Assembly: GCF_030384885.1 (NCBI RefSeq)
Contig: NZ_CP128613.1
Source of the DNA: Escherichia coli
GTDB taxonomy: Bacteria; Pseudomonadota; Gammaproteobacteria; Enterobacterales; Enterobacteriaceae
Reading direction: 5' to 3' (one strand)
Length of the DNA: 64,000 nucleotides
The stretch's first letter is position 1; every line of letters starts with the position of its first letter. The translations under genes were made by a program, and so were the position numbers. Of the stretch, positions 1 through 14,954 are shown piece after piece. The notes below the pieces were generated by a model. That model worked only from the letters and a program-made list of their open reading frames with translations. It did no database searches and was not told the origin of the DNA.

Positions 1-111
1 CACTTCAAAGTAGCGAAAATAGTTACCGTGCCAGGCCACGCCCATCATATCGACGTCGTGAAATGGAATGATCAGCTCGACTTCAGCGGTAAATCGGGGA
101 TCGTTAAGCAC
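1..111 (-). CDS. hotdog-fold acyl-CoA/acyl-ACP thioesterase, N-terminal fragment (gene runs off window start)
   Basis: Reverse complement of 1-111 reads VLNDPRFTAEVELIIPFHDVDMMGVAWHGNYFRYFEV from a GTG at 109-111, immediately after the stop of the upstream gene; the ...HDVD..GVAWHGNYF pattern is typical of 4HBT/YbgC-type thioesterases. Start codon uncertain. Confidence 0.5.
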   Translation of the reverse strand, partial: MLNDPRFTAEVELIIPFHDVDMMGVAWHGNYFRYFEV

Positions 112-114
112 CCT

Positions 115-1791
115 TTACTCCTTGTCCTGGACTTCCGGCAGTTGCCAGAAATCGAAAAAATTAAACCAGTCGAGGGGCGACTGGAGCGCGTGATGTTCCA
201 GACGCGCGGCGTAATGATCGATAGCGTTTTGCAGCGCCTGCTGGCGTTCGCCACGCGGCAACAGCAGCGGGTCGGCAAAGGTTTCGCAGTGAATATGCAG
301 CTTGCCGTGCTGGCGCAGGGCGAAAATCAGATTCACCGGGCAGCGCAAAATAGAGGCGAGAATAAACGGCCCCTGTGGGAAGGGCGCAGGCTGGCCCATA
401 AACGGACTCCAGCAGACGCGCCAGTCGCCGCCGCGTTGCGGGTTGATGGCGATGCGGTCAGCAACAATCGCCACCCATTCGCCGTTATCCAGCTTCTCTT
501 TTAGCAGGATGGCGGTGTCCGGGCCGATATCCGTCACCGGGAGCAGGTTGATGCCTGCCTGCGGGGCCATCTCCTGCATTATCTGTTTAAAACGTTGGGC
601 GTTTTCGCTAAACACCAGCGCGTTAATGGTTTTGTAGCCCTGAATTTTTGCCAGCGCCCGGCACACTTCCACATCGCCAAGATGCGAGGCCAGCAGCAAT
701 TTGCCGCGCGGATCGCTGACGTTAAGTGCCGCTTCTGCGCCTGGTGCAAACAGCACATCACGCCCGAGTTGCAGCTCGCCGCGCCAACTGGCGATTTTGT
801 CGAGCATGGCGTTGCCGAAACGTAGAAAGTGCTGATAGCTGTTGAGTTTTGCTGCCTGTGGTTGATGCTGGCGCACACGGGCGAGCCAGTCTTGCGACGC
901 TTTGCGCGCCCGGCTGGCGGTGAGCCAGTAGACGCCCACCACCGGGTAAAGCAGCGCGGTAAACGCCGTTCTTCCCAGCAGGCGCCAGACCAGCAGCATC
1001 AGGCGCATTCCCCATAATCCTTTCACTTCGCTCTGCCGCGCCCAGTGGCTGGAAGAGTGGCGCATCAGCAGCGAAGGAATACGCGGCAACATGCCGAAAA
1101 ACAGGCGCGTGTGCATGAGCGAGATGCGGACGTTATCTTTCAGGGCATCAAAGTGCGAAAGCCCGTCCAGCGGATAGGTGACGCGAGTCGGCACGAAATA
1201 GCTGGTGTTTCCCTGCCAGTAGAGGCGCACCATCACTTCGGTGTCGAAATCCATCCGCTTGCCGATGGTGGCGTGTTTTGCCAGTTGCAGCGTTGGCGCA
1301 ACCGGATAAACGCGAAAGCCGCACATGCTGTCTTTCAGTTGCAGGGAGAGCGTTTCGATCCACACCCAGACGTGGGTGACCCAGCGCCCGTACAGCCGTG
1401 AGCGGGGGATGGAGTCATCGTAAATTGGCTGGCCGGAGATCAGTGCCGCAGGGTGTTGTTCAGCGAGTGCCAGCAGTTTGGGGATATCTTCAATCGCGTG
1501 CTGACCGTCGGCATCCACCTGTACCGCATGGCTGAACCCCGCGTCTGCCGCTGCCTGTAAGCCGCGCATTACCGCCGCGCCTTTGCCTGCGTTTTCTGCC
1601 AGGCGAATTAATGTCACGCCAGGCTGTTCGGCAACCAGATTATCCAGTTGCTGTTGCGTGGCGGCATCGCTGCCGTCATCCACCACAATACAGGGCAGAT
1701 TAAATGGCTTAAGACGCGCCAGCACGCCCGGCATCATTGCGCCGTGGTTGTAGCAGGGGATCAACACGCAGGGAGAAAAGTTTACCGACAT
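115..1791 (-). CDS. bifunctional family-2 glycosyltransferase / LpxL-like lipid acyltransferase (ApeJ-like)
   Basis: 558-aa ORF; N-terminus has GT-A signatures (LIPCYNH, VVDDGSDA, VDADGQH); C-terminal half resembles lauroyl/myristoyl (HtrB/LpxL-family) acyltransferases. Family assignment by pattern recognition, not search. Confidence 0.8.
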   Translation of the reverse strand: MSVNFSPCVLIPCYNHGAMMPGVLARLKPFNLPCIVVDDGSDAATQQQLDNLVAEQPGVTLIRLAENAGKGAAVMRGLQAAADAGFSHAVQVDADGQHAIEDIPKLLALAEQHPAALISGQPIYDDSIPRSRLYGRWVTHVWVWIETLSLQLKDSMCGFRVYPVAPTLQLAKHATIGKRMDFDTEVMVRLYWQGNTSYFVPTRVTYPLDGLSHFDALKDNVRISLMHTRLFFGMLPRIPSLLMRHSSSHWARQSEVKGLWGMRLMLLVWRLLGRTAFTALLYPVVGVYWLTASRARKASQDWLARVRQHQPQAAKLNSYQHFLRFGNAMLDKIASWRGELQLGRDVLFAPGAEAALNVSDPRGKLLLASHLGDVEVCRALAKIQGYKTINALVFSENAQRFKQIMQEMAPQAGINLLPVTDIGPDTAILLKEKLDNGEWVAIVADRIAINPQRGGDWRVCWSPFMGQPAPFPQGPFILASILRCPVNLIFALRQHGKLHIHCETFADPLLLPRGERQQALQNAIDHYAARLEHHALQSPLDWFNFFDFWQLPEVQDKE

Positions 1792-2135
1792 AGGCGGATC
1801 TTCCCGCTACTGGCGGTGTGGCGGGCGTCACCGTCGTGACGCTGATAACTAAAGCTCAGAATCTGGCGTTCTTCCTGCCAGCTAAGCGTGAGTGTGACGC
1901 GGTTATCCGGCAGCAATGGAGCCTGGAATTTGATGTTCTGAATGGAGTGAAAACGCCAACCGGGCGCGAGCAGGGCAAGCGCGTAACTCATCGCCCAGTC
2001 GATTTGTGCCACGCCGGGGAGTAATGGTTGTACGGCAAAATGACCGCGAAACCAGAACAGATCTGCCCTGAGATGCAAAACAATCTCAAGGTGATTCACT
2101 TGTGCCTGATGGCGCTCGATTTCATGGGGCTTCAT
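1782..2135 (-). CDS. FabA/FabZ-like hotdog 3-hydroxyacyl-ACP dehydratase
   Basis: Motif FRGHFAVQPLLPGVAQIDWAMS resembles the FabZ motif F.GHFP..P.MPGV; start placed at the ATG (2133-2135) preceded by AGGAG rather than the track's upstream ATG at 2165; overlaps the upstream gene's stop by 14 nt. Confidence 0.75.
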   Translation of the reverse strand: MKPHEIERHQAQVNHLEIVLHLRADLFWFRGHFAVQPLLPGVAQIDWAMSYALALLAPGWRFHSIQNIKFQAPLLPDNRVTLTLSWQEERQILSFSYQRHDGDARHTASSGKIRLCR

Positions 2136-3483
2136 GAAATAACTCCTGTAATTGCGCATAGACACGCTTGTTCATACTGTTTACTGGCATTTCATCAATA
2201 ACGCGCCAGTAACGCGGAATAGCAACTGGCTCCAGCGTCGGGCGCAGTAATCGCCGCCAGGCCATTTCCTGGCTGTGCCCGCCGCCGTTTTGCCATTGCA
2301 GGCGAGCTTCGTCATCCAGCACCAGCAAAACGCCAATACTCTGACGCCCGCCGCGCGTAACGGGAACTGCCGCCGCCTCGTGAATACCGTCCAGCGCCAG
2401 CAGACGTTGTTCTACTTCCTGGAGTGAAATGCGTTTTTCTTCAATCTTAACGATGCGTCCGCGACGCCCCATCAGATGGAACTGGCCGTCTTCGCTAAAC
2501 TGCAAGATATCGTCGAGTAACAGGCCGCTATCTTCCTCCATCAGAGGTGAAAAGAGACGAAAGGCATCATCTTCGGCCTGGAACTGCATACCTGGAAAGG
2601 GCCGCCAGCGGCGTTGCTCTTGTTCGCGGTAACGCCAGGCGATGACGCCGGTTTCCGTGCTGCCGTAGATTTCATCAGGCCAGACGCGCAGCCAGCTCGC
2701 GGTGTGTTGTACGTCCTGCCACGGTAGTTCACCGCCAGCGGACAGAAGCACCTGAACGGGGGGCGGGGATAGCTGAGCATCCAGACGCTTCAAAAATGCC
2801 GGGCTGCTGATGAAGATATAGCGATGCTGATGACTCAACGCGGCAAACTGTTCGACATACCAGAGCATGGCGGCATGGAGCGGTAATCCCAGCGCCATGG
2901 GCAGGAAAACGCGAAAAGTCAGGCCGTACAAATGCTGCGGCAATACGGAACCGATGACACGACATCCGGCAAGACGTGCGCCTAATCGTTCAGCCAGCAG
3001 TTCTGCTTCACGGTCCAACAAACGAACAGGTTTAATCACCCGCTTCGGCTGCCCTGTGGAACCAGAGGTAAACAGCTCGATATAAGCGTCTGGCGCTATA
3101 GCGGCAAAGGTGAATGATTGTGTCGCGACTTGTGGGGAGCTTGCTACCAACTGCAATGAACCTTGGCAGTTAAGTTCGCTGTCGCTAAGCACACCATCGA
3201 ACAGTTCACGTTGCTCGTTAAGCTGGATGACGCGGTTATGCCCCGGAAGCACCGGTGTTTTTCCGGCGTGTAGCGTGGCGAGCAGGGCAACGATAAACAG
3301 ATAGCAGTCCTCAAAGCACAGCGCCCAGCGTTCACCTGGTTGTTGCTGTAAACGGCAGATAAGTTGCGAGACATCGTGACGCAAATCGCCCAGCGTCCAG
3401 GTGCTTTCGTCCAGCCACGCAATGGGCGTGTCATCAGAGCGTGGCGCAGTCAGCCAGCGTGCAAGCGGTAAGGTCTGCTTCAT
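2122..3483 (-). CDS. AMP-dependent synthetase/ligase (acyl-ACP/acyl-CoA synthetase-like)
   Basis: TSGSTGQPK AMP-binding motif; start placed at the ATG that overlaps the upstream TGA as ATGA (3480-3483); the track ORF extends to 3522. Confidence 0.8.
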   Translation of the reverse strand: MKQTLPLARWLTAPRSDDTPIAWLDESTWTLGDLRHDVSQLICRLQQQPGERWALCFEDCYLFIVALLATLHAGKTPVLPGHNRVIQLNEQRELFDGVLSDSELNCQGSLQLVASSPQVATQSFTFAAIAPDAYIELFTSGSTGQPKRVIKPVRLLDREAELLAERLGARLAGCRVIGSVLPQHLYGLTFRVFLPMALGLPLHAAMLWYVEQFAALSHQHRYIFISSPAFLKRLDAQLSPPPVQVLLSAGGELPWQDVQHTASWLRVWPDEIYGSTETGVIAWRYREQEQRRWRPFPGMQFQAEDDAFRLFSPLMEEDSGLLLDDILQFSEDGQFHLMGRRGRIVKIEEKRISLQEVEQRLLALDGIHEAAAVPVTRGGRQSIGVLLVLDDEARLQWQNGGGHSQEMAWRRLLRPTLEPVAIPRYWRVIDEMPVNSMNKRVYAQLQELFHEAP

Positions 3484-4061
3484 GAGCGATCTCTTTTCAT
3501 CACCTGACGGCGCACCAGCCATTCACCAGCCATTAACGTCCCCATCAACAAATAAGCAATCATGCCGTTCCAGGCAGTCCATAACGACATATCGCCATGC
3601 AGCGCGGTAAAGAGGGCAATTCCGCCGTTGATGATGAAAAAGCCGCACCAGATTTGCGTGACGTGGCGGGTATAGCGCACGCCCTTTTCCGGGAGGTCTG
3701 GCTCCTGCAAACGCGCCAGCCGCTCAACAATTGGCATTGCCGACCACAGCGAACCGCCAAAAACCGCCAGCATTACCGCGTTAACCACTACCGGGTAAAA
3801 CAGCAGTAGCTGGTGCGTTTTCAACAGAAAGCTGGCAACACACAAGGCGATACCCACAACAGCGACGATTTGTGTGACGGCTTGTAGCGGCCCGGCCTGG
3901 CAACGAGTCTGGCGCAGGCGCAATAAAAGCAGCAGCGCCATCAGCGGCAACAGCCAGTGCAGGCCGTTATGTGCCAAACCAAGCCAAATCACAAACGGCC
4001 AGGCGAGCAGCAATAATCCAGTCAGCAGTTTAATAATCGGTAGCGAGCGAATGCCCGACAT
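3480..4061 (-). CDS. integral membrane protein of the lipid-biosynthesis cluster
   Basis: 193-aa ORF, several hydrophobic segments, co-directional and translationally coupled within the cluster. Confidence 0.7.
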   Translation of the reverse strand: MSGIRSLPIIKLLTGLLLLAWPFVIWLGLAHNGLHWLLPLMALLLLLRLRQTRCQAGPLQAVTQIVAVVGIALCVASFLLKTHQLLLFYPVVVNAVMLAVFGGSLWSAMPIVERLARLQEPDLPEKGVRYTRHVTQIWCGFFIINGGIALFTALHGDMSLWTAWNGMIAYLLMGTLMAGEWLVRRQVMKRDRS

Positions 4062-4065
4062 CAGA

Positions 4066-4317
4066 TCAGGCTTCTTGTAGCAGGCGTTCTACGGCCTCTA
4101 CGACATCCCGGACTGTACGCACTGCTTTAAACTCTTCCGGCTTGATTTTCTTACCGGTTTTCTTTTGCAGATGCACAATCATGTCAACGGCGTCGATGCT
4201 GTCCAGTTCCAGATCTTCGTACAGGCGCGCTTCAGGTTTGATGTCCTGCGGTTCGATTTCAAACAGCTTAACCAGCAGAGCTGAGACTTCCTGATAGACG
4301 GTTTGTTGTTCTGTCAT
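4066..4317 (-). CDS. acyl carrier protein
   Basis: 83 aa, acidic, LDSIDAVDMI phosphopantetheine-attachment motif. Confidence 0.85.
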   Translation of the reverse strand: MTEQQTVYQEVSALLVKLFEIEPQDIKPEARLYEDLELDSIDAVDMIVHLQKKTGKKIKPEEFKAVRTVRDVVEAVERLLQEA

Positions 4318-4328
4318 GATGGCTTTCC

Positions 4329-4586
4329 TCAGGCACGTTGTGCAGCAATAAAAGAGGCCAGAGTGGCGACAGAGAAAAAGTGCTGACGCATCTCTTCACT
4401 TTCCGCAGAAAGTACAACGCCATATTCATTTTTCACTGCCAGCCCCAGTTCCAGGGCATCGATAGAGTCCAGCCCTAAACCGTCGCCAAACAGTGGCGCG
4501 TCGGTATCGATATCATCAGGAGCCAACTCGTCCAGATTGAGGGTGCTGATGATGAGATTTTTAATTTCCAGATAAAGCGCTTGCAT
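4329..4586 (-). CDS. acyl carrier protein
   Basis: 85 aa, GLDSIDALELG phosphopantetheine-attachment motif; 5' end overlaps the upstream acyltransferase gene, so the exact start is uncertain. Confidence 0.8.
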   Translation of the reverse strand: MQALYLEIKNLIISTLNLDELAPDDIDTDAPLFGDGLGLDSIDALELGLAVKNEYGVVLSAESEEMRQHFFSVATLASFIAAQRA

Positions 4587-5382
4587 TATTTATTCCTGAG
4601 AGAGGTAAACAACCTTGTTGTAATTGAAGCAAAAGATGCCGGTTTAACTGCCTTGCTGCTAGCGCCGGTTCTTGTGAAGTTGCATCGTAAAATTTATTGA
4701 TTTCTACCCGCCCACGGACTTCAACCGTAAAAAGTGGCCTGGCAGGTGGAACGTCATACCATTTACTTTGTTTATCCAGCAGATGCTCGCTACAGCCGAT
4801 CGTCACGATGCGTAAATCGCTGGCGCAGCGCACGGCAATATTCGCCGCACCGCGCTGTAACGTCATTTTTTCACCAGGCTTCGTCCGCGTGCCTTCGGGG
4901 AAAATCAAGATAGTGTCGCCCTGTGCCAGTCGCTGTTGGCAACGGGGTAAGAGAGTTTCAGCTTCGCTGTTGATTAAATAATCTGCCGCCCGCACGACGC
5001 CGCCAAGAAAAGGATTTTTTAACAGCGCGCTTTTTACCAGGCAGTCAGTTTCTGGCATGACTGATGCCAGTAGTACGTAATCGATAAGCGTGGGATGATT
5101 AGCTACGACGAGGCAACCGCGTTCCTGACGTAAAATTTCAGCCCCATCAATACGATAATCCAGCACGCCAAGCCCTTTTGCGACTGTTAAAAACAGACGA
5201 AAACTGGCGGCAATGCTGCGACGCGCCAAACGACGGCGGCGGGAAGTGTTCCACACCAAAACTAACAGTACGTTAAACCACACCACAGAGAGTAGTAGTC
5301 CGCCGAGGCCAAACAGGGCAAAACACAACCCGGTCATAACCAGTCGCCATGTCCATTCCAGGCGTGACATCAGCTTACTCAT
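4561..5382 (-). CDS. PlsC-family (lysophospholipid/1-acylglycerol-3-phosphate-like) acyltransferase
   Basis: 273 aa; N-terminal transmembrane segment, NH-x4-D motif (ANHPTLID) and FPEGTRT motif. Confidence 0.8.
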   Translation of the reverse strand: MSKLMSRLEWTWRLVMTGLCFALFGLGGLLLSVVWFNVLLVLVWNTSRRRRLARRSIAASFRLFLTVAKGLGVLDYRIDGAEILRQERGCLVVANHPTLIDYVLLASVMPETDCLVKSALLKNPFLGGVVRAADYLINSEAETLLPRCQQRLAQGDTILIFPEGTRTKPGEKMTLQRGAANIAVRCASDLRIVTIGCSEHLLDKQSKWYDVPPARPLFTVEVRGRVEINKFYDATSQEPALAARQLNRHLLLQLQQGCLPLSGINNASALSGN

Positions 5383-6125
5383 CTACGGCTCCAGCGCCAC
5401 TGTACGCGCTCACCAGGAAGTGAAAAAGCATCTGAATTTTGTAAATAGTGCTGTAAAAACAACATGCTTTGCGGCAGTGTTGTTTCATTGCCCGCAATGG
5501 CTGGCTGTGTTTCACATTGCCACTCATCGCCAGCTTCAATCACCAGCGCAACAGCATATGGCCAGGTCGGCATTTCTGCTGGGAGCTGCGGATGATAGAA
5601 CTCAGGTAGAAAGCCATCAAAATCGACCATCAACACACGCTGGTATCCCGCTTGTAGCAGGCTAAGCACTTCACTCAAACCTTGCTGGAAAGTGTCGCGA
5701 CCAGCCGAAAGCGATGACGAAACGATCGGCTGTTTGGCCGCAATGGTCAGGTTACCCACGGAAGAGTTGTGTACTGAAAGTGCAAAGTCGGTGGGGGAAA
5801 GCGCCTGTTCAGTTGCCAGTGCATGAACAATGCGGTAATTGCGCTCCAGTTCGCCATGACGACTGGTATACAAAACGGCGTCTGGCTGATGGCGGCGTAG
5901 CATTGCCAGGCCGCATTCAACAGCCAGTTTGCTGCCTGAACTGAGGCGGCGGGCGGTCATCATTGGCAGTTCACTTAATTTTGCCAACGGCGCGGCAGGG
6001 TCAATCGCCCACGGCTGGCGCGACCATGCTTGCCATTGCTGCGCTTCGCTAAGTCCAGGCGCCAGTGCCTGCCAGTCGGTAATATTTAATGTAAATTTCA
6101 TCAACGCGCGCCCGCGGTAAACCAA
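5379..6125 (-). CDS. hypothetical protein, possibly beta-ketoacyl-synthase N-terminal-like domain (chain-length-factor-like)
   Basis: 248-aa ORF with ATGA overlap to the downstream acyltransferase; function inferred only from position in the cluster and vague resemblance; needs an HMM search. Confidence 0.6.
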   Translation of the reverse strand: MVYRGRALMKFTLNITDWQALAPGLSEAQQWQAWSRQPWAIDPAAPLAKLSELPMMTARRLSSGSKLAVECGLAMLRRHQPDAVLYTSRHGELERNYRIVHALATEQALSPTDFALSVHNSSVGNLTIAAKQPIVSSSLSAGRDTFQQGLSEVLSLLQAGYQRVLMVDFDGFLPEFYHPQLPAEMPTWPYAVALVIEAGDEWQCETQPAIAGNETTLPQSMLFLQHYLQNSDAFSLPGERVQWRWSRR

Positions 6126-6141
6126 AATTATTAAGTGACGA

Positions 6142-7209
6142 TTATTTCTTTTGGCATATCAAAAGAGTATGCCCAACGCCTAAATTATCGTGGCGCTCTG
6201 CTACCTGAAATCCTGCTTTATTCAGATAGTCGTAAAATTTCTCTGCACTATAGAAACGGCTGTTACCGTTTGCCATGCAGGTGAAATAAAGTGAGGACGC
6301 GTTCAGGCTAAATGATGCTGCTTCAAACCGCTGCGCATCCCAGAACAACTCCATGATGCAAACTTTTGCGCCAGGCTTCATTACGCTGGCGATTTTGCTG
6401 AGTATGCTAATTATTTGTTCGGGTGAAAAACAGTCTAAAAATTGGCTCATCCACCAGATATCAGCCTCGCCCGGTAATGGGGCATCGCTTAGCATATCCA
6501 CCGCATGGAAATCTATGCGATCAGAAAAACCTGCATTCGCGATATTTTCTTTCGCTAGTACGATTTGTTGTGGCAGATCTAATAACGTCACGGCGATGTT
6601 TTCATTGTATTTGCAGCAACGCAAAGCCCACTTACCCGTATTGCCGCCTACATCGTACAATGTTGTGGGGTTGTTGGCGAATACATAAGGCAGTGCGGCG
6701 TTAAATGCGCCATCTGAATAGTAATGATCAAACGCAAACCAGCTTTCACGAGCGGCATCTGGTAATTGTGAAAGTGCGGGATATATCGTCGACCAGTCGC
6801 CAAATACTTTTAACCCGGACGGTTTTCCTTCATTGAGTGAATCGGCGAGGAAGAAGAGCCCCTGATAGCAGACATCCTGGGTGAAATCCATATTCACGCG
6901 AGTCATAGTGTCATGCAGGAGGTAATGACCGATTTTCGCCAGGTAATACATTCCCTCTTTACAGGTAATAATTCGCCCGCTTAAGCCCATATCTAACAGA
7001 ACGCTGGCCGCATATTCGTTGATATGGCTATGTTCGGTGATATCAGCCAGCGTTGCGCCATGTTTGCCTTGCCGATCCAGATATGAAAGTACACCCGCAT
7101 TACGTAGGCAGAGAGCTGTTTGAAAAAGCATGGGGGCAAAGGCAATGCGTTGAGCTTCGGTAATCGCATCCAGTGCGCTAAGAGAATCCTGTTCGTACAT
7201 GTTGGGCAC
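6142..7209 (-). CDS. class I SAM-dependent O-methyltransferase
   Basis: 355 aa; VGGNTGKWA glycine-rich SAM-binding motif followed by LLDLP...DM..D, typical of O-methyltransferase family 2. Confidence 0.85.
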   Translation of the reverse strand: MPNMYEQDSLSALDAITEAQRIAFAPMLFQTALCLRNAGVLSYLDRQGKHGATLADITEHSHINEYAASVLLDMGLSGRIITCKEGMYYLAKIGHYLLHDTMTRVNMDFTQDVCYQGLFFLADSLNEGKPSGLKVFGDWSTIYPALSQLPDAARESWFAFDHYYSDGAFNAALPYVFANNPTTLYDVGGNTGKWALRCCKYNENIAVTLLDLPQQIVLAKENIANAGFSDRIDFHAVDMLSDAPLPGEADIWWMSQFLDCFSPEQIISILSKIASVMKPGAKVCIMELFWDAQRFEAASFSLNASSLYFTCMANGNSRFYSAEKFYDYLNKAGFQVAERHDNLGVGHTLLICQKK

Positions 7210-7268
7210 AACCTGTTAAGAGGGAATTAAATTATTATCGGACCGAAGCGGCCCGACTTTAGGGGAAA

Positions 7269-7658
7269 TTACAAATCTGCGCCAGCCGACAAATTCAGTT
7301 GAATATCTTTGTCGAGATTGCGGACCCAGCGATTATAGTTTTTATGAATTTGTCCGCCTGATGCTTGCAGGTTCTGACTATTTTCATAATTGATATCGTA
7401 GCTGGATGCCGTGTAGTTAATGCGAATTTCGGCTGAATGATCGCGTGACTGTTGACGTGCTTTAATTACGCCTTGTCCGGCTTCGGACATAATCCATTTG
7501 CGTTCAACGCCAGCTTTCAGAATCGCTTTTTTCACTTGTTCCGGGGTATGACCAGCGCTGACGGTTGAGTGAACCTGATCAATTGGCGCAGTACGCGCGC
7601 AACCCGCTAAAGCACCCACAACAGCAATAGCCGCAAACCATTTCATGTAATGTCTCAT
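7269..7658 (-). CDS. small lipoprotein, first gene of the cluster in this window
   Basis: 129 aa; signal peptide with lipobox LAGC (MKWFAAIAVVGALAGC); exact start (7658 vs 7646) uncertain. Confidence 0.65.
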   Translation of the reverse strand: MRHYMKWFAAIAVVGALAGCARTAPIDQVHSTVSAGHTPEQVKKAILKAGVERKWIMSEAGQGVIKARQQSRDHSAEIRINYTASSYDINYENSQNLQASGGQIHKNYNRWVRNLDKDIQLNLSAGADL

Positions 7659-8037
7659 TAGAATCCCATTAAAGTATTGTTTTTACGAGTAAAGCAAGAT
7701 TTAACTGTAATTGCTGGCATCACTATTCTTTATTTAGCGAAAAAATTACTTGTGAGATAAGTCAGTAAGTGCACATCAGAGTAAAAATTTCTGAAATGAC
7801 TAAATTACTGCCAGCGGGGACCAACTATAAGTGAGTGAGAAAAATGAGGCAATAAAAATAACAGATTGTTATCAGTGCATTCTTTGAGAGGGATTTAATC
7901 GCTATTCGGCGTTTATATATATTTGACTTAAGGAATGGTTTTTATAAATTAATTGTCTGAATAATGTTTCTTCATTTCCTCAAATCAAATGGCCACTGTT
8001 AGATAAACGGTGGCCATTGCCTGCTCAGGAGGTGCTA

Positions 8038-9087
8038 TTAACCTGGTAACCGACTTTTCGGTCTGCCCGGCCCCAGTAAGATCGCCAGTTTGCTACCGCC
8101 TTTGGTGGTTTCCATCCAGATTTTACACACGCTGGTTAATGGTACCGAAAGTAGCATTCCAACCGGGCCGAGCAGCCATCCCCAAATCAACAATGAAAGA
8201 AATACCACCATGGTGGACATCCCCAGGCGATGGCCCATCATCCGCGGTTCTAAAATATTGCCGATGACCATATGGACAACTAAAAACAATGCGCCGACCA
8301 GAATACATTCGTAAACGCCATTAAACAGCAGCACCTGAATCATTGGCGGTACGGCGGAAATTACCGCGCCGATATTGGGGACGTAGTTAAGCAAAAACGC
8401 CAGTACCGCCCACATCAGCGCAAACTGTACACCCATAAGTTCCAGCCCCAGCCAGACGATAATGCCTGTCCATAAACTTAGCAGTGTCTTCAATGCAAGA
8501 TAGTGCGAAACACCTTTTAAGGCGCGGTGTAGTCCGGCGATGTGAATCTGTGGATTATTCAACGCAAAACGCATTTTGTAAGGGACGTGGCGCACTTCAA
8601 ACAGCATGAAAACTACGGTCATCACCAGCAAAAGCACGCTCGCCATTGCCCCGGAAAGCCCGGTCATTAGCGCCGTGGTGAAGGTAACCACTTTTTCCGA
8701 GTCCATCCGCTGCAGCATTCGCTCCGGCGACATATGCAAATTAAGAAAAGGCAACATCTCCTGCAATTTAAAAAGCTTGCGCGTCAGCTCCTTATTAAAC
8801 TTCGGCAGCATAGAGATAAATTCGTTAAACGAAGCTGCCAGTACACCGACCAGTGCGGTAAGTGCGATCAGCATCACCACCACCACAATCGTAATTGCAA
8901 CGGGGCGTTGTACTCCGCGACGAATAAACCAGGTGACGAGCGGGTTGAGGACGATGGCAAAAAACAGCGCCAGTAACAGTTGCACAATGATATCTGCCGC
9001 TGCGTGAATGCCCGCGAGGATTACTACCAGCGAGGCCAGTTTAAGCAGAATGTGCATGCCCGTTTTATCGGGTTGAGGGGTTTCCAT
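8038..9087 (-). CDS. yhhT: AI-2E/PerM-family membrane transporter YhhT
   Basis: Protein from METPQPDKTGMHILLK recognised as E. coli YhhT (349 aa); start at the ATG preceded by AGGAAG rather than the track's longer ORF. Confidence 0.93.
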   Translation of the reverse strand: METPQPDKTGMHILLKLASLVVILAGIHAAADIIVQLLLALFFAIVLNPLVTWFIRRGVQRPVAITIVVVVMLIALTALVGVLAASFNEFISMLPKFNKELTRKLFKLQEMLPFLNLHMSPERMLQRMDSEKVVTFTTALMTGLSGAMASVLLLVMTVVFMLFEVRHVPYKMRFALNNPQIHIAGLHRALKGVSHYLALKTLLSLWTGIIVWLGLELMGVQFALMWAVLAFLLNYVPNIGAVISAVPPMIQVLLFNGVYECILVGALFLVVHMVIGNILEPRMMGHRLGMSTMVVFLSLLIWGWLLGPVGMLLSVPLTSVCKIWMETTKGGSKLAILLGPGRPKSRLPG

Positions 9088-12200: not shown

Positions 12201-12254
12201 GGTGGATCAGGCTAGCGGACCGATCGCGCTCAATTTTGCGGCTTGCAACCGGTT

Positions 12255-12391
12255 TGTAGGACGGATAAAACGTTCAAGCTGCATCTGGCGATACGGTGCG
12301 CAATGCCTGATGCGACGCTGTCGCGTCTTATCATGCCTACGAGTTCAATGCCCTGTGTAGGCCAGATAAGGCGTTTACGCCGCATCCGGCA
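12255..12391. repeat. BIME / REP element cluster
   Basis: Copies of the REP palindrome (e.g. tgtaggccagataaggcgtttacgccgcatccggcac and gcctgatgcgacgctgtcgcgtcttatcatgcctac) in the tusA-zntA convergent intergenic region. Confidence 0.8.
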
Positions 12392-12414
12392 CGCAAACGT
12401 AATGGAATGCACAA

Positions 12415-12723
12415 ATGGATTATTTAATTCCAGTTTGTCTGGTATTGCTGGGATTGCTCGCGATCTTCACCCCCAATTGGCTGATCCCTGTTTTTATCGT
12501 CGTGGGGGGATGGCTGGGGGTACTTGCCTGGGGTTGGCTCTGGCTAATGATTTTTTTACCTTTACTTAACGGTGTCGGGCTTGCTTATGCCCTGTGGTTG
12601 ATGTTCAAAAGGCCATCCATAGCATCCCGCCTGGTTGCTGCATGCTGTGTTATCTCCGTCATTCTGATGTTAGCGCTTTATTATGCTTTCCTGACTATGC
12701 CGCCGTTCCCGCCTCAGCACTAA
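12415..12723 (+). CDS. hypothetical small hydrophobic protein (unverified ORF)
   Basis: 102-aa ORF directly after the BIME; Trp/Leu-rich with 2-3 predicted transmembrane segments (GGWLGVLAWGWLWLMIFLPLL); weak Shine-Dalgarno; could be a chance ORF. Confidence 0.3.
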   Translation: MDYLIPVCLVLLGLLAIFTPNWLIPVFIVVGGWLGVLAWGWLWLMIFLPLLNGVGLAYALWLMFKRPSIASRLVAACCVISVILMLALYYAFLTMPPFPPQH

Positions 12724-12755
12724 GCCTGATAGCCAGAGGCTATCAGGCAACACTT

Positions 12756-14954
12756 TTACTTCCTGCGCAACAATCTTAACGCATTCGCTGTCACCAGCAC
12801 CGTCGCACCCGTATCTGCCAGCACCGCCAGCCATAGTCCGGTCATCCCTAACAGCGTTGTGACGAGGAAGATCCCTTTCAGCCCCAGCGCAATGGTGATG
12901 TTCTGGCGGATATTGGCGTGAGTGGCGCGTGCCAGTTCAATCATCTGCACCAGGCCGCGCAGGTGGTTATGGGTTAATGCAGCGTCGGCGGTTTCCAGCG
13001 CCACATCTGTGCCACTGCCCATTGCAATCCCTATGGCGGCAGCTTTCATGGCGGGCGCGTCGTTAATACCGTCACCGACCATCGCCAGAGGCGCATGTTG
13101 ATTCAGCTCGGTCACCGCTTTGACTTTATCTTCTGGTAATAGGCCCGCTTTAAATTTCAGCCCCAGTTCACCGGCGATTGCCGCCGCTGCGTGTGGATTA
13201 TCGCCAGTGAGGATCACTCCTTTGACGCCCAGGGCGCTCAGTTCGCTGATGGCAGTTGCGGCGTCGGCGCGCAGGGTATCCTGCAATGCAATGACACCCA
13301 GCACTTCATCGTTACGCACCACCAGTACTACCGTTTGCCCGGCGCTTTCCAGTTCGTTAATTAAACCAGCAAATGCAACAGCCGGATGTTTTCCGGCAGC
13401 GCATATCAACACGCGCTCACCGTTAATCAGTGCTTCAATACCAGACCCGACCAGCGCCCGCTGTGATTCGGCGGCGGGAATGGCGAGTTCAGCAACCTGT
13501 GCTTCGCGTACGATGGCTTGCGCCAGTGGATGCGTCGCGCCTTGCTCGACCGCCGCTGCCAGTGTCAGCAGTTCAGATTCACTAATACCCGTTGCCGGAT
13601 GAATCGCGGTAACGCGCGGTTTACCGACGGTCAGCGTGCCGGTTTTATCAAACGCCACCTGGGTAACACGACCTAGTTGTTCCAGCGCCGCACCGCCTTT
13701 AATCAACGCCCCATGACGCGCTGCTGCCGCCAGCCCGGAGGTGATCGCCGCAGGTGTTGAGATCACCAGCGCACACGGGCAGCCAATCAGCAGCAGCGTC
13801 AGCCCTTTATAAATCCACTCCTGCCAGCTTGCGGCAAACAGCAGCGGTGGCACCAGCGTCACCAGCAGGGCGACGGCCATAATCGCTGGCGTGTAAATAC
13901 GGCTGAAACGGTCGATAAACCGCTCAATGGGCGCGCGGCGCTCTTCGGCTTCTTCGATCAGTTTCAGAATCCGGTCAATGGCGCTGGCACCCGGTTCTGA
14001 CAGCACTTCCAGCGTTACCAGACGGTCTACGCTGGTGGCGCCTGCAGGAACTTTATCACCCGTCGCGCGCTCCACCGGAATGGATTCGCCGGTCAGGGCG
14101 CTTTCATCAAAACTGGCAAAGGGCGAGAGCAGTTTACCGTCGGCAGGTAAACGCCCACCTGCCGCAACTTCGATAACATCGCCCGGACGCAGGCTGTTAA
14201 TTGCTACCTCTTCACGCTTGCCATTACGCAGGCGCGTGGCGGTTTCCGGTTTCAGCGCCATTAACGCGCTGACCCCTTGACGCGCGCGGCTGGCGGCCCA
14301 GCCTTCCAGTCGTTCACCAATCAAAAACAGCAGCAACACCATCGCAGCTTCAGCCGTTGCGCCAATAAACAGCGCACCAATAGCGGCTACGCTCATTAAG
14401 GTTTCAATAGCGAAGTAGCTGCCGGATTTGATCAGCCGTAATGCCTGACGAGCAATCGGGTACAGCCCAACCAGCGTGGTCGCGATAAACGCCAGTTGAC
14501 CGAACGGATGATTAAACTGCTCCAGACCCCAGCTGATTGCCATCAACACGATTAGCGTAATCAGCGGCAGATTCTCTTTCAGGCGTGATGCTTGCGGTTC
14601 TACGGCTGCCTGTTCATCGCGCAGGGAATAGCCCGCTTTTTGCACCGCAGATTCAACTTGTGCACGGATGTCATTGTCGGCATCAACCACCAGTTTTTCG
14701 GTGGCGAACAGCACCTGCACCTGATTCACGCCTGCAAGCTGGCGCACGGCATTTTCTACCTTGCGCGCGCAGGCGGCGCAGTCCATGCCGCTGACTTTCC
14801 AGCTATAGCGGGTGCCGGAGACGTTTTCAGAGAGCGTTGGCGTGCTGGAACATGCGCCGTCGCAGCAACAGTCGTTGACGTTCTGTACCGTGGTTAGCGG
14901 TTTGAACGCAGAAAATTGAGGGGCTTTCTTGCCGTGATTGTCAGGAGTCGACAT
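12756..14954 (-). CDS. zntA: Zn(II)/Cd(II)/Pb(II)-translocating P-type ATPase ZntA
   Basis: 732 aa; GMDCAACARKVE metal-binding motif, CPC, DKTGT; recognised as E. coli ZntA. Confidence 0.97.
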   Translation of the reverse strand: MSTPDNHGKKAPQFSAFKPLTTVQNVNDCCCDGACSSTPTLSENVSGTRYSWKVSGMDCAACARKVENAVRQLAGVNQVQVLFATEKLVVDADNDIRAQVESAVQKAGYSLRDEQAAVEPQASRLKENLPLITLIVLMAISWGLEQFNHPFGQLAFIATTLVGLYPIARQALRLIKSGSYFAIETLMSVAAIGALFIGATAEAAMVLLLFLIGERLEGWAASRARQGVSALMALKPETATRLRNGKREEVAINSLRPGDVIEVAAGGRLPADGKLLSPFASFDESALTGESIPVERATGDKVPAGATSVDRLVTLEVLSEPGASAIDRILKLIEEAEERRAPIERFIDRFSRIYTPAIMAVALLVTLVPPLLFAASWQEWIYKGLTLLLIGCPCALVISTPAAITSGLAAAARHGALIKGGAALEQLGRVTQVAFDKTGTLTVGKPRVTAIHPATGISESELLTLAAAVEQGATHPLAQAIVREAQVAELAIPAAESQRALVGSGIEALINGERVLICAAGKHPAVAFAGLINELESAGQTVVLVVRNDEVLGVIALQDTLRADAATAISELSALGVKGVILTGDNPHAAAAIAGELGLKFKAGLLPEDKVKAVTELNQHAPLAMVGDGINDAPAMKAAAIGIAMGSGTDVALETADAALTHNHLRGLVQMIELARATHANIRQNITIALGLKGIFLVTTLLGMTGLWLAVLADTGATVLVTANALRLLRRK

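Follow-up and report, generated by a model that had tools for sequence, protein, structure and literature searches.

The 64,000-nucleotide stretch of Escherichia coli DNA analysed here (the window) carries two adjacent open reading frames on the minus strand at positions 4066-4586. Both encode small acidic proteins in which a DSIDA motif holds the phosphopantetheine-attachment serine. An initial annotation, made from the sequence alone, had described the two as tandem acyl carrier proteins (ACPs), and this description is borne out by the exact boundaries of the reading frames, the isoelectric points of their products, the position of the serines and the profile scores. The two genes are as follows.

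4329..4586, minus strand: apeE, an ApeE-type acyl carrier protein of 85 aa with an ATG start, pI 4.05, 9.2 kDa
4066..4317, minus strand: apeF, an ApeF-type acyl carrier protein of 83 aa with an ATG start, pI 4.75, 9.6 kDa

Both reading frames are intact. The closest genome to the window, that of E. coli 2013C-4282 (NZ_CP027579.1; about 100% identity to the first 12 kb of the window and 2 differences in 24,001 compared bases), carries the same two coding sequences, which RefSeq annotates as "phosphopantetheine-binding protein" (apeE) and "acyl carrier protein" (apeF). The apeE product contains the sequence LGLDSIDALEL with the attachment serine at residue 41 (codon 4464-4466), and the apeF product contains LELDSIDAVDM with the attachment serine at residue 40 (codon 4198-4200). 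Both proteins match the PP-binding model of Pfam (PF00550, gathering cut-off 20.8 bits), ApeF with 50 bits (E = 3.5e-13) and ApeE with 34.2 bits (E = 3e-8).

The start of apeE overlaps the end of the preceding gene, apeD, by 26 nt. The start of apeF lies 11 nt past the apeE stop codon, which is itself overlapped by a GAGGAAAG ribosome-binding site, and apeG starts 4 nt past the apeF stop codon. A promoter and terminator scan of positions 3400-8200 revealed no terminator-like site at or between apeE and apeF, and such sites were not enriched in the scanned region (4, versus 5.7 in shuffled sequence). We therefore dropped the idea that the two genes belong to separate transcription units. The two carriers are translated from one minus-strand operon, which runs in the order apeA-B-C-D-E-F-G-H-I-J and onward. 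In the gap between apeA and yhhT (7659-8037), the sequence that best resembles a sigma-70 promoter is a candidate promoter for this operon by consensus match only (TTGCCT, 17-nt spacer, TATAGT; 7852-7824, minus strand).

The aryl polyene cluster around the carriers

The carrier genes lie in the 5' half of an aryl polyene (APE) gene cluster at the acpT-yhhT site. The remaining cluster genes in the window are listed below in the order of transcription.

7269..7646, minus strand: apeA, first gene of the cluster, annotated as a hypothetical protein and without a match in Pfam or NCBIfam; its place fits the published 18-gene order (PMC8253772)
6142..7200, minus strand: apeB, a SAM-dependent O-methyltransferase, FlxJ-family-like, by Pfam PF00891 and annotation; 475 bits on NCBIfam NF053543, under its 560-bit cut-off
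5379..6101, minus strand: apeC, a ketosynthase chain-length factor by Pfam PF13723 (224.5 bits) and annotation
4561..5382, minus strand: apeD, directly upstream of apeE, of the lysophospholipid acyltransferase family by Pfam PF01553 (70.7 bits) and RefSeq annotation
3480..4061, minus strand: apeG, annotated as a membrane protein, with a weak, sub-threshold Pfam match
2122..3483, minus strand: apeH, an adenylating (AMP-binding) enzyme by Pfam PF00501 and annotation
1782..2135, minus strand: apeI, an ApeI-family dehydratase by Pfam PF22818 (ApeI-like, 135.5 bits) and annotation
115..1791, minus strand: apeJ, a family 2 glycosyltransferase by Pfam PF00535 and annotation, whose C-terminal part resembles an acyltransferase
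1..111, minus strand: 5' end of apeK, an acyl-CoA thioesterase cut at the window edge, from the annotation of the closest genome

Pfam and NCBIfam scans agreed with the RefSeq gene annotations across the region. The genes apeA to apeJ are inside the window, and apeK to apeR together with acpT lie just past its left edge, as seen in NZ_CP027579.1. There, the DNA beyond the edge encodes the thioesterase, LolA, an MMPL transporter, a DUF3261 protein, a ketosynthase, an ApeP-family dehydratase, FabG2 and a second ketosynthase, followed by acpT. The gene order of the window and the adjoining DNA is that of the published 18-gene apeA-apeR cluster of E. coli CFT073 (PMC8253772). The core genes of APE clusters have been defined as those for the ketosynthases (apeO/apeR), the chain-length factor (apeC), the ACPs (apeE/apeF), the dehydratases (apeI/apeP), the ketoreductase (apeQ) and the transporter (apeM) (bioRxiv 10.1101/2020.12.19.423268). 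This set is present, with apeC, apeE, apeF and apeI in the window and apeM, apeO, apeP, apeQ and apeR in the adjoining DNA of NZ_CP027579.1.

Assignment of the two carriers to ApeE and ApeF

We assigned the carriers via their closest solved relatives. The protein encoded at 4329-4586 has 9LS6 as its best solved relative (E = 1.2e-24), with no entry for 9L1V in the match list; the best solved relative of the protein encoded at 4066-4317 is 9L1V (E = 1.8e-19). These entries are orthologue structures determined by NMR, 9LS6 being ApeE and 9L1V being ApeF of A. baumannii (Lee et al. 2025, PMC12624758). The NCBIfam models separate the two proteins in the same way. ApeE passes NF006617 with 90.7 bits (cut-off 70) and scores 26.7 bits on NF003757. 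ApeF passes NF003757 with 144.5 bits (cut-off 65) and has a cross-score of 33.2 bits on NF006617, the ApeE model.

The published hallmarks of ApeE are a Gly-rich motif before helix II and insertions in the alpha1-alpha2 and alpha2-alpha3 loops (PMC12624758). The Gly-rich motif reads GDGLG in the window ApeE and GEGLG in the A. baumannii protein, and a GxGxGxDS motif is found in 93 of 150 ApeE-family representatives. The three-residue insertion reads LDELA in the window and LEDIT in A. baumannii, and the six-residue insertion SAESEEMRQH and NAESDETKQH, respectively. In the alignment, both loop insertions are missing from ApeF and from AcpP. Counting the Gly-rich motif, the window ApeE has three ApeE-specific insertions in common with the A. 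baumannii protein. Ser41 of the window ApeE (LDSIDA) aligns with S41 of 9LS6, and Ser40 of the window ApeF with S40 of 9L1V. The window ApeF also keeps A43, F63, K64 and V66 of the shallow cavity described for A. baumannii ApeF, with V38 replaced by L38. Identity to the A. baumannii orthologues is 56% for ApeE and 45% for ApeF. Finally, apeE sits between apeD (acyltransferase) and apeF in the APE cluster, and the same order is seen at the comparison loci L006/L007, L010 and L012/L013.

Both proteins give weak matches to AcpP models, as would be expected on an older, FAS-like view of the cluster in which they would be alternative ACPs for fatty acid synthesis without a role in pigment formation. 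Housekeeping AcpP does belong to the same four-helix PP-binding fold family, is likewise small and acidic, and has its serine at the start of helix II. However, on the AcpP equivalog model TIGR00517 the two proteins score 48 and 26.2 bits, under the cut-off of 70.45, and we rejected membership of the AcpP family on this basis. Their identity to AcpP is 21-24%, AcpP has DSLDT in place of DSIDA, and AcpT serves the APE pair according to the literature (PMC8253772). The surrounding genes make up a complete APE cluster, which encodes a chain-length factor, the ApeI/ApeP dehydratases and an enzyme that adenylates aryl acids but lacks an enoyl reductase, and the CFT073 cluster makes APE when expressed heterologously (PMC8253772). 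We regard the fatty-acid-synthesis reading as effectively refuted and its probability as negligible. It is, by our estimate, highly probable that the two reading frames are apeE and apeF, the discrete ACPs of the type II PKS-like APE cluster of E. coli, working in the carrier scheme set out further below. The initial annotation had foreseen the carrier pair and its link to AcpT; the APE cluster, and ApeE and ApeF as such, were not named in it.

ApeE and ApeF are divergent and form separate clades

In a BLASTP comparison, ApeE and ApeF of the window were 31% identical across 81 aa, with 10 gap positions (E = 2e-9). The similarity exceeds chance, and the two are distant homologs. The ApeE/ApeF pair of A. 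baumannii has been reported to be 16% identical, whereas the 31% for the window pair is a local BLASTP value. The two proteins are neither near-identical nor devoid of the attachment serine, and the statement in the initial annotation that they are quite different outside the DSIDA motif holds. We calculated a neighbor-joining tree of 17 sequences, which comprised the ApeE/ApeF pairs of the window, A. baumannii and four metagenomic clusters, both halves of a fused metagenomic protein (P0128), two ACP domains from the metagenomic locus L014, and AcpP as the outgroup. The tree contained two clean clades, ApeE and ApeF. Identity is 42-57% within the ApeE clade and 36-55% within the ApeF clade (the outlying free ACP of L014 left out), compared to 19-32% between the clades, which are also set apart by clade-specific insertions and deletions. 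A recent duplication, already doubted in the initial annotation, is ruled out by the 31% identity of the pair and the two-clade tree.

To look beyond close relatives, we turned to clustered databases: the best 120 matches in a protein homologue search with ApeE were all near-identical enterobacterial proteins, and deep conservation was therefore examined via representatives of 50%-identity clusters. Among these, 571 matched ApeE at E <= 1e-10. We inspected the genomic context of six representatives from this search, four unfused, one ApeE-ApeF fusion and one ketosynthase fusion. Each of the four unfused ApeE relatives (46-51% identity) is followed by a gene for a PP-binding protein of 82-98 aa and then by an apeG-like gene, whose product has 150-200 aa and no Pfam match. 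Where upstream DNA was visible, the distant ApeE relatives are preceded by acyltransferase and chain-length-factor genes. The ordered ApeE/ApeF pair is adjacent or fused in five other clusters, that of A. baumannii and four metagenomic ones. ApeE and ApeF are ancient paralogs. They represent separate groups of orthologues, whose members occur side by side in a fixed order from cluster to cluster and are sometimes fused.

Two metagenomic proteins, P0128 (174 aa, locus L009, 30-554) and P0152 (182 aa), are single-chain ApeE-ApeF fusions that keep the order of the tandem genes. A different arrangement was observed at L014, a flexirubin-like metagenomic locus that also has genes for an aromatic ammonia-lyase, a radical SAM protein and LolA. 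Here, an ApeE-type domain is located on the C-terminus of a 774-aa ketosynthase (P0216, 6001-8325), and the second ACP is encoded by a separate 82-aa gene (2686-2934) about 3 kb upstream, such that the locus has two carriers without the tandem layout.

The probable link to AcpT and the DSIDA motif

In NZ_CP027579.1, acpT follows directly after apeR on the same strand, outside the window, and encodes an Sfp-type phosphopantetheinyl transferase (PPTase) with a PF01648 domain. In E. coli K-12, acpT is directly beside yhhT and the APE cluster is absent, in agreement with the title of De Lay & Cronan 2006. According to that study, as it is cited in PMC8253772 and also in PMC4103896, AcpT activates the O157:H7 homologues of ApeE and ApeF in vitro. 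The initial annotation had proposed that the tandem depends on a dedicated PPTase such as AcpT. The position of acpT after apeR, the K-12 acpT without the cluster and the reported activation of the O157:H7 homologues (PMC8253772) lend support to such a dependence, which for the window pair would follow by analogy.

A PPTase gene was also found at L006, a distant APE-type cluster with an ApeE that is 51% identical. This gene (3701-4249, minus strand) lies immediately upstream of apeC and is transcribed from the opposite strand, and its Sfp-type product contains PF01648 and a sub-threshold PF22624 match. The possession of its own PPTase by this cluster parallels the linkage to acpT in E. coli.

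DSIDA is the majority motif at helix II, being present in at least 121 of the 150 ApeE representatives and in 7 of 8 ApeF-type sequences, and it is common to both carrier clades across very divergent clusters. One could speculate from this pattern that DSIDA is the signal by which AcpT and the Ape enzymes recognize ApeE and ApeF, and that it shields both carriers from AcpS and the fatty acid synthase, in which case E. coli ApeF could carry a second conjugated fatty-acyl chain, not malonyl. We consider this idea unlikely.

Proposed division of labor between ApeE and ApeF

Published data assign different roles to the two carriers. In E. coli CFT073, deletion of apeE abolished APE (Johnston et al. 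2021, PMC8253772), whilst deletion of apeF left partial pigmentation and led to the accumulation of yellow intermediates of the APE carboxylic acid type (PMC8253772). ApeH adenylates 4-hydroxybenzoate and loads it preferentially onto ApeE, a property demonstrated with the orthologues of A. baumannii and Xenorhabdus (PMC12624758, PMC8253772), and in NMR titrations with the A. baumannii proteins, ApeH perturbed ApeE but not ApeF (PMC12624758). FabD binds and malonylates A. baumannii ApeF in vitro, and the shallow cavity of ApeF has been described as suited to malonyl (PMC12624758). The ketosynthase/chain-length-factor pair ApeO-ApeC has a Kd of 74 nM for ACP1 and of 43 uM for ACP2 (PMC8358021). 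By analogy, the window pair is likely to consist of functionally distinct carriers, as the initial annotation had suggested: the apeE and apeF deletions differ in effect (PMC8253772), and ApeH acts on ApeE and FabD on ApeF (PMC12624758). Its two examples of such a distinction, starter versus elongation and lipid versus polyene, both correspond to published models (PMC12624758; bioRxiv 10.1101/2020.12.19.423268).

The scheme that we propose for the window cluster is drawn in all its steps from the published work on orthologues. AcpT would convert apo-ApeE and apo-ApeF to their holo forms, and ApeH would adenylate 4-hydroxybenzoate and load it onto holo-ApeE. ApeE would then carry the growing polyene through cycles of ApeO-ApeC/ApeR (ketosynthase), ApeQ (ketoreductase) and ApeI/ApeP (dehydratase). 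The housekeeping FabD would charge ApeF with malonyl, and ApeF would supply the extender units, a function in which it might be partly replaceable by AcpP or ApeE. The finished chain would be passed to a lipid anchor by ApeD and ApeJ. The data on AcpT, ApeH, ApeO-ApeC and FabD and the deletion phenotypes make this the best-supported model by analogy, with ApeE as the putative starter and chain-bearing carrier and ApeF as the putative extender (malonyl) carrier. The suggested division of labor draws on the orthologues of A. baumannii, Xenorhabdus and E. coli CFT073, the latter being about 94% identical as judged from the Nissle 1917 alleles, and the probable malonyl role of ApeF draws on binding and loading in vitro.

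The apeF-deletion phenotype of E. coli fits the malonyl role and a later role in lipid assembly equally well. Grammbitter et al. proposed from the structure of the APE-lipid and from Xenorhabdus deletion mutants that ApeF is a dedicated carrier for the second, conjugated fatty-acyl chain of the APE-lipid, with ApeE as the carrier of the aryl polyene chromophore (bioRxiv 10.1101/2020.12.19.423268). This is the main rival to our scheme. It would account for the yellow intermediates still made by the E. coli apeF deletion, a trait of the late-pathway apeD and apeJ mutants as well (PMC8253772), and the duplicated ketosynthases and dehydratases (ApeO/ApeR and ApeI/ApeP) could serve two chains. However, the binding and malonylation of ApeF by FabD and the malonyl-suited cavity (PMC12624758) speak against it, as does an in vitro polyene synthesis that was run with malonyl on ACP2 (PMC8358021). 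We hold the second-chain role to be a possibility worth keeping, albeit a doubtful one; it is not exclusive of the malonyl role, and the two are compatible with each other.

The partial pigmentation of the apeF deletion could also mean that ApeF is mostly redundant, a spare carrier that persists through linkage and for which ApeE or the housekeeping AcpP can substitute, and some APE-type clusters, such as that for xanthomonadin, have a single ACP (PMC8253772). Against this, members of the ApeF clade accompany ApeE in the five other clusters with an adjacent or fused pair, and some are joined to it in a single protein. Purifying selection acts on both genes within E. coli, with dN/dS values of 0.20-0.38 for apeF and 0.04-0.15 for apeE. 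Moreover, the apeF deletion alters the product profile (PMC8253772). Redundancy of ApeF therefore strikes us as improbable by a wide measure, and an extender role for ApeF in the chain-building scheme above is the reading that we retain.

The biology of ApeE and ApeF at this locus is already known and is ordinary for the APE cluster type. As published work already covers the carrier pair, our finding adds correct annotation and nothing new, namely that of apeE, apeF and the 5' half of the APE cluster at the acpT-yhhT site. The tandem ApeE/ApeF is a recognized signature of APE clusters and has been proposed as an anti-virulence target; in E. coli, APE makes cells more resistant to oxidative stress and enhances biofilm formation (PMC8253772).

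Distribution and allelic variation in E. coli

To get a picture of the distribution within the species, we searched complete E. coli genomes and found the 521-bp apeE-apeF pair in 824 of 5,426, always on the chromosome and in one or two copies per genome. The cluster is found at no fewer than two places in the chromosome, one being the acpT-yhhT site of the window and of O157:H7 and another the site used in Nissle 1917. The CFT073/Nissle 1917 locus, from the same species, has the 18-gene order and the tandem apeE-apeF of the window. Whereas the window cluster lies between yhhT and acpT, the cluster of the Nissle type is at a different location without acpT next to it; in Nissle 1917 it is found beside hemagglutinin/ShlB pseudogenes (L004, NZ_CP007799.1, 1115839-1140357). 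The Nissle 1917 alleles share 80 of 85 ApeE residues and 78 of 83 ApeF residues with the window, and the DNA of the pair is about 93% identical. O157:H7 strain F3113 has the cluster at the same acpT site as the window and shows allelic differences only (ApeE 83/85 and ApeF 80/83 residues identical).

One of the two differences between the window and NZ_CP027579.1 falls in apeF. Position 4109, in codon 70, is C in the window and T in NZ_CP027579.1, and residue 70 of ApeF is therefore Arg in the window and Gln in NZ_CP027579.1. The O157:H7 F3113 and Nissle 1917 alleles also have Gln here. With Leu at the equivalent position of A. baumannii ApeF, the site is not conserved, and R70 may be peculiar to this strain or stem from a difference in sequencing. 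The sole other difference in the 24,001 bases is at position 13192 inside zntA (12756-14954, minus strand), which is T in the window and C in NZ_CP027579.1.

The spacer between tusA and zntA (12201-12755) is 555 bp long in the window compared to about 100 bp in K-12, and the full spacer is present in only 264 of the 5,426 genomes. It contains an open reading frame (12415-12723, plus strand) for a very hydrophobic protein of 102 aa, annotated as hypothetical and without a Pfam match. Spacer bases ~56-191 (window ~12256-12391) are part of a dispersed repeat, for which the median number of matching places in a genome is 5.
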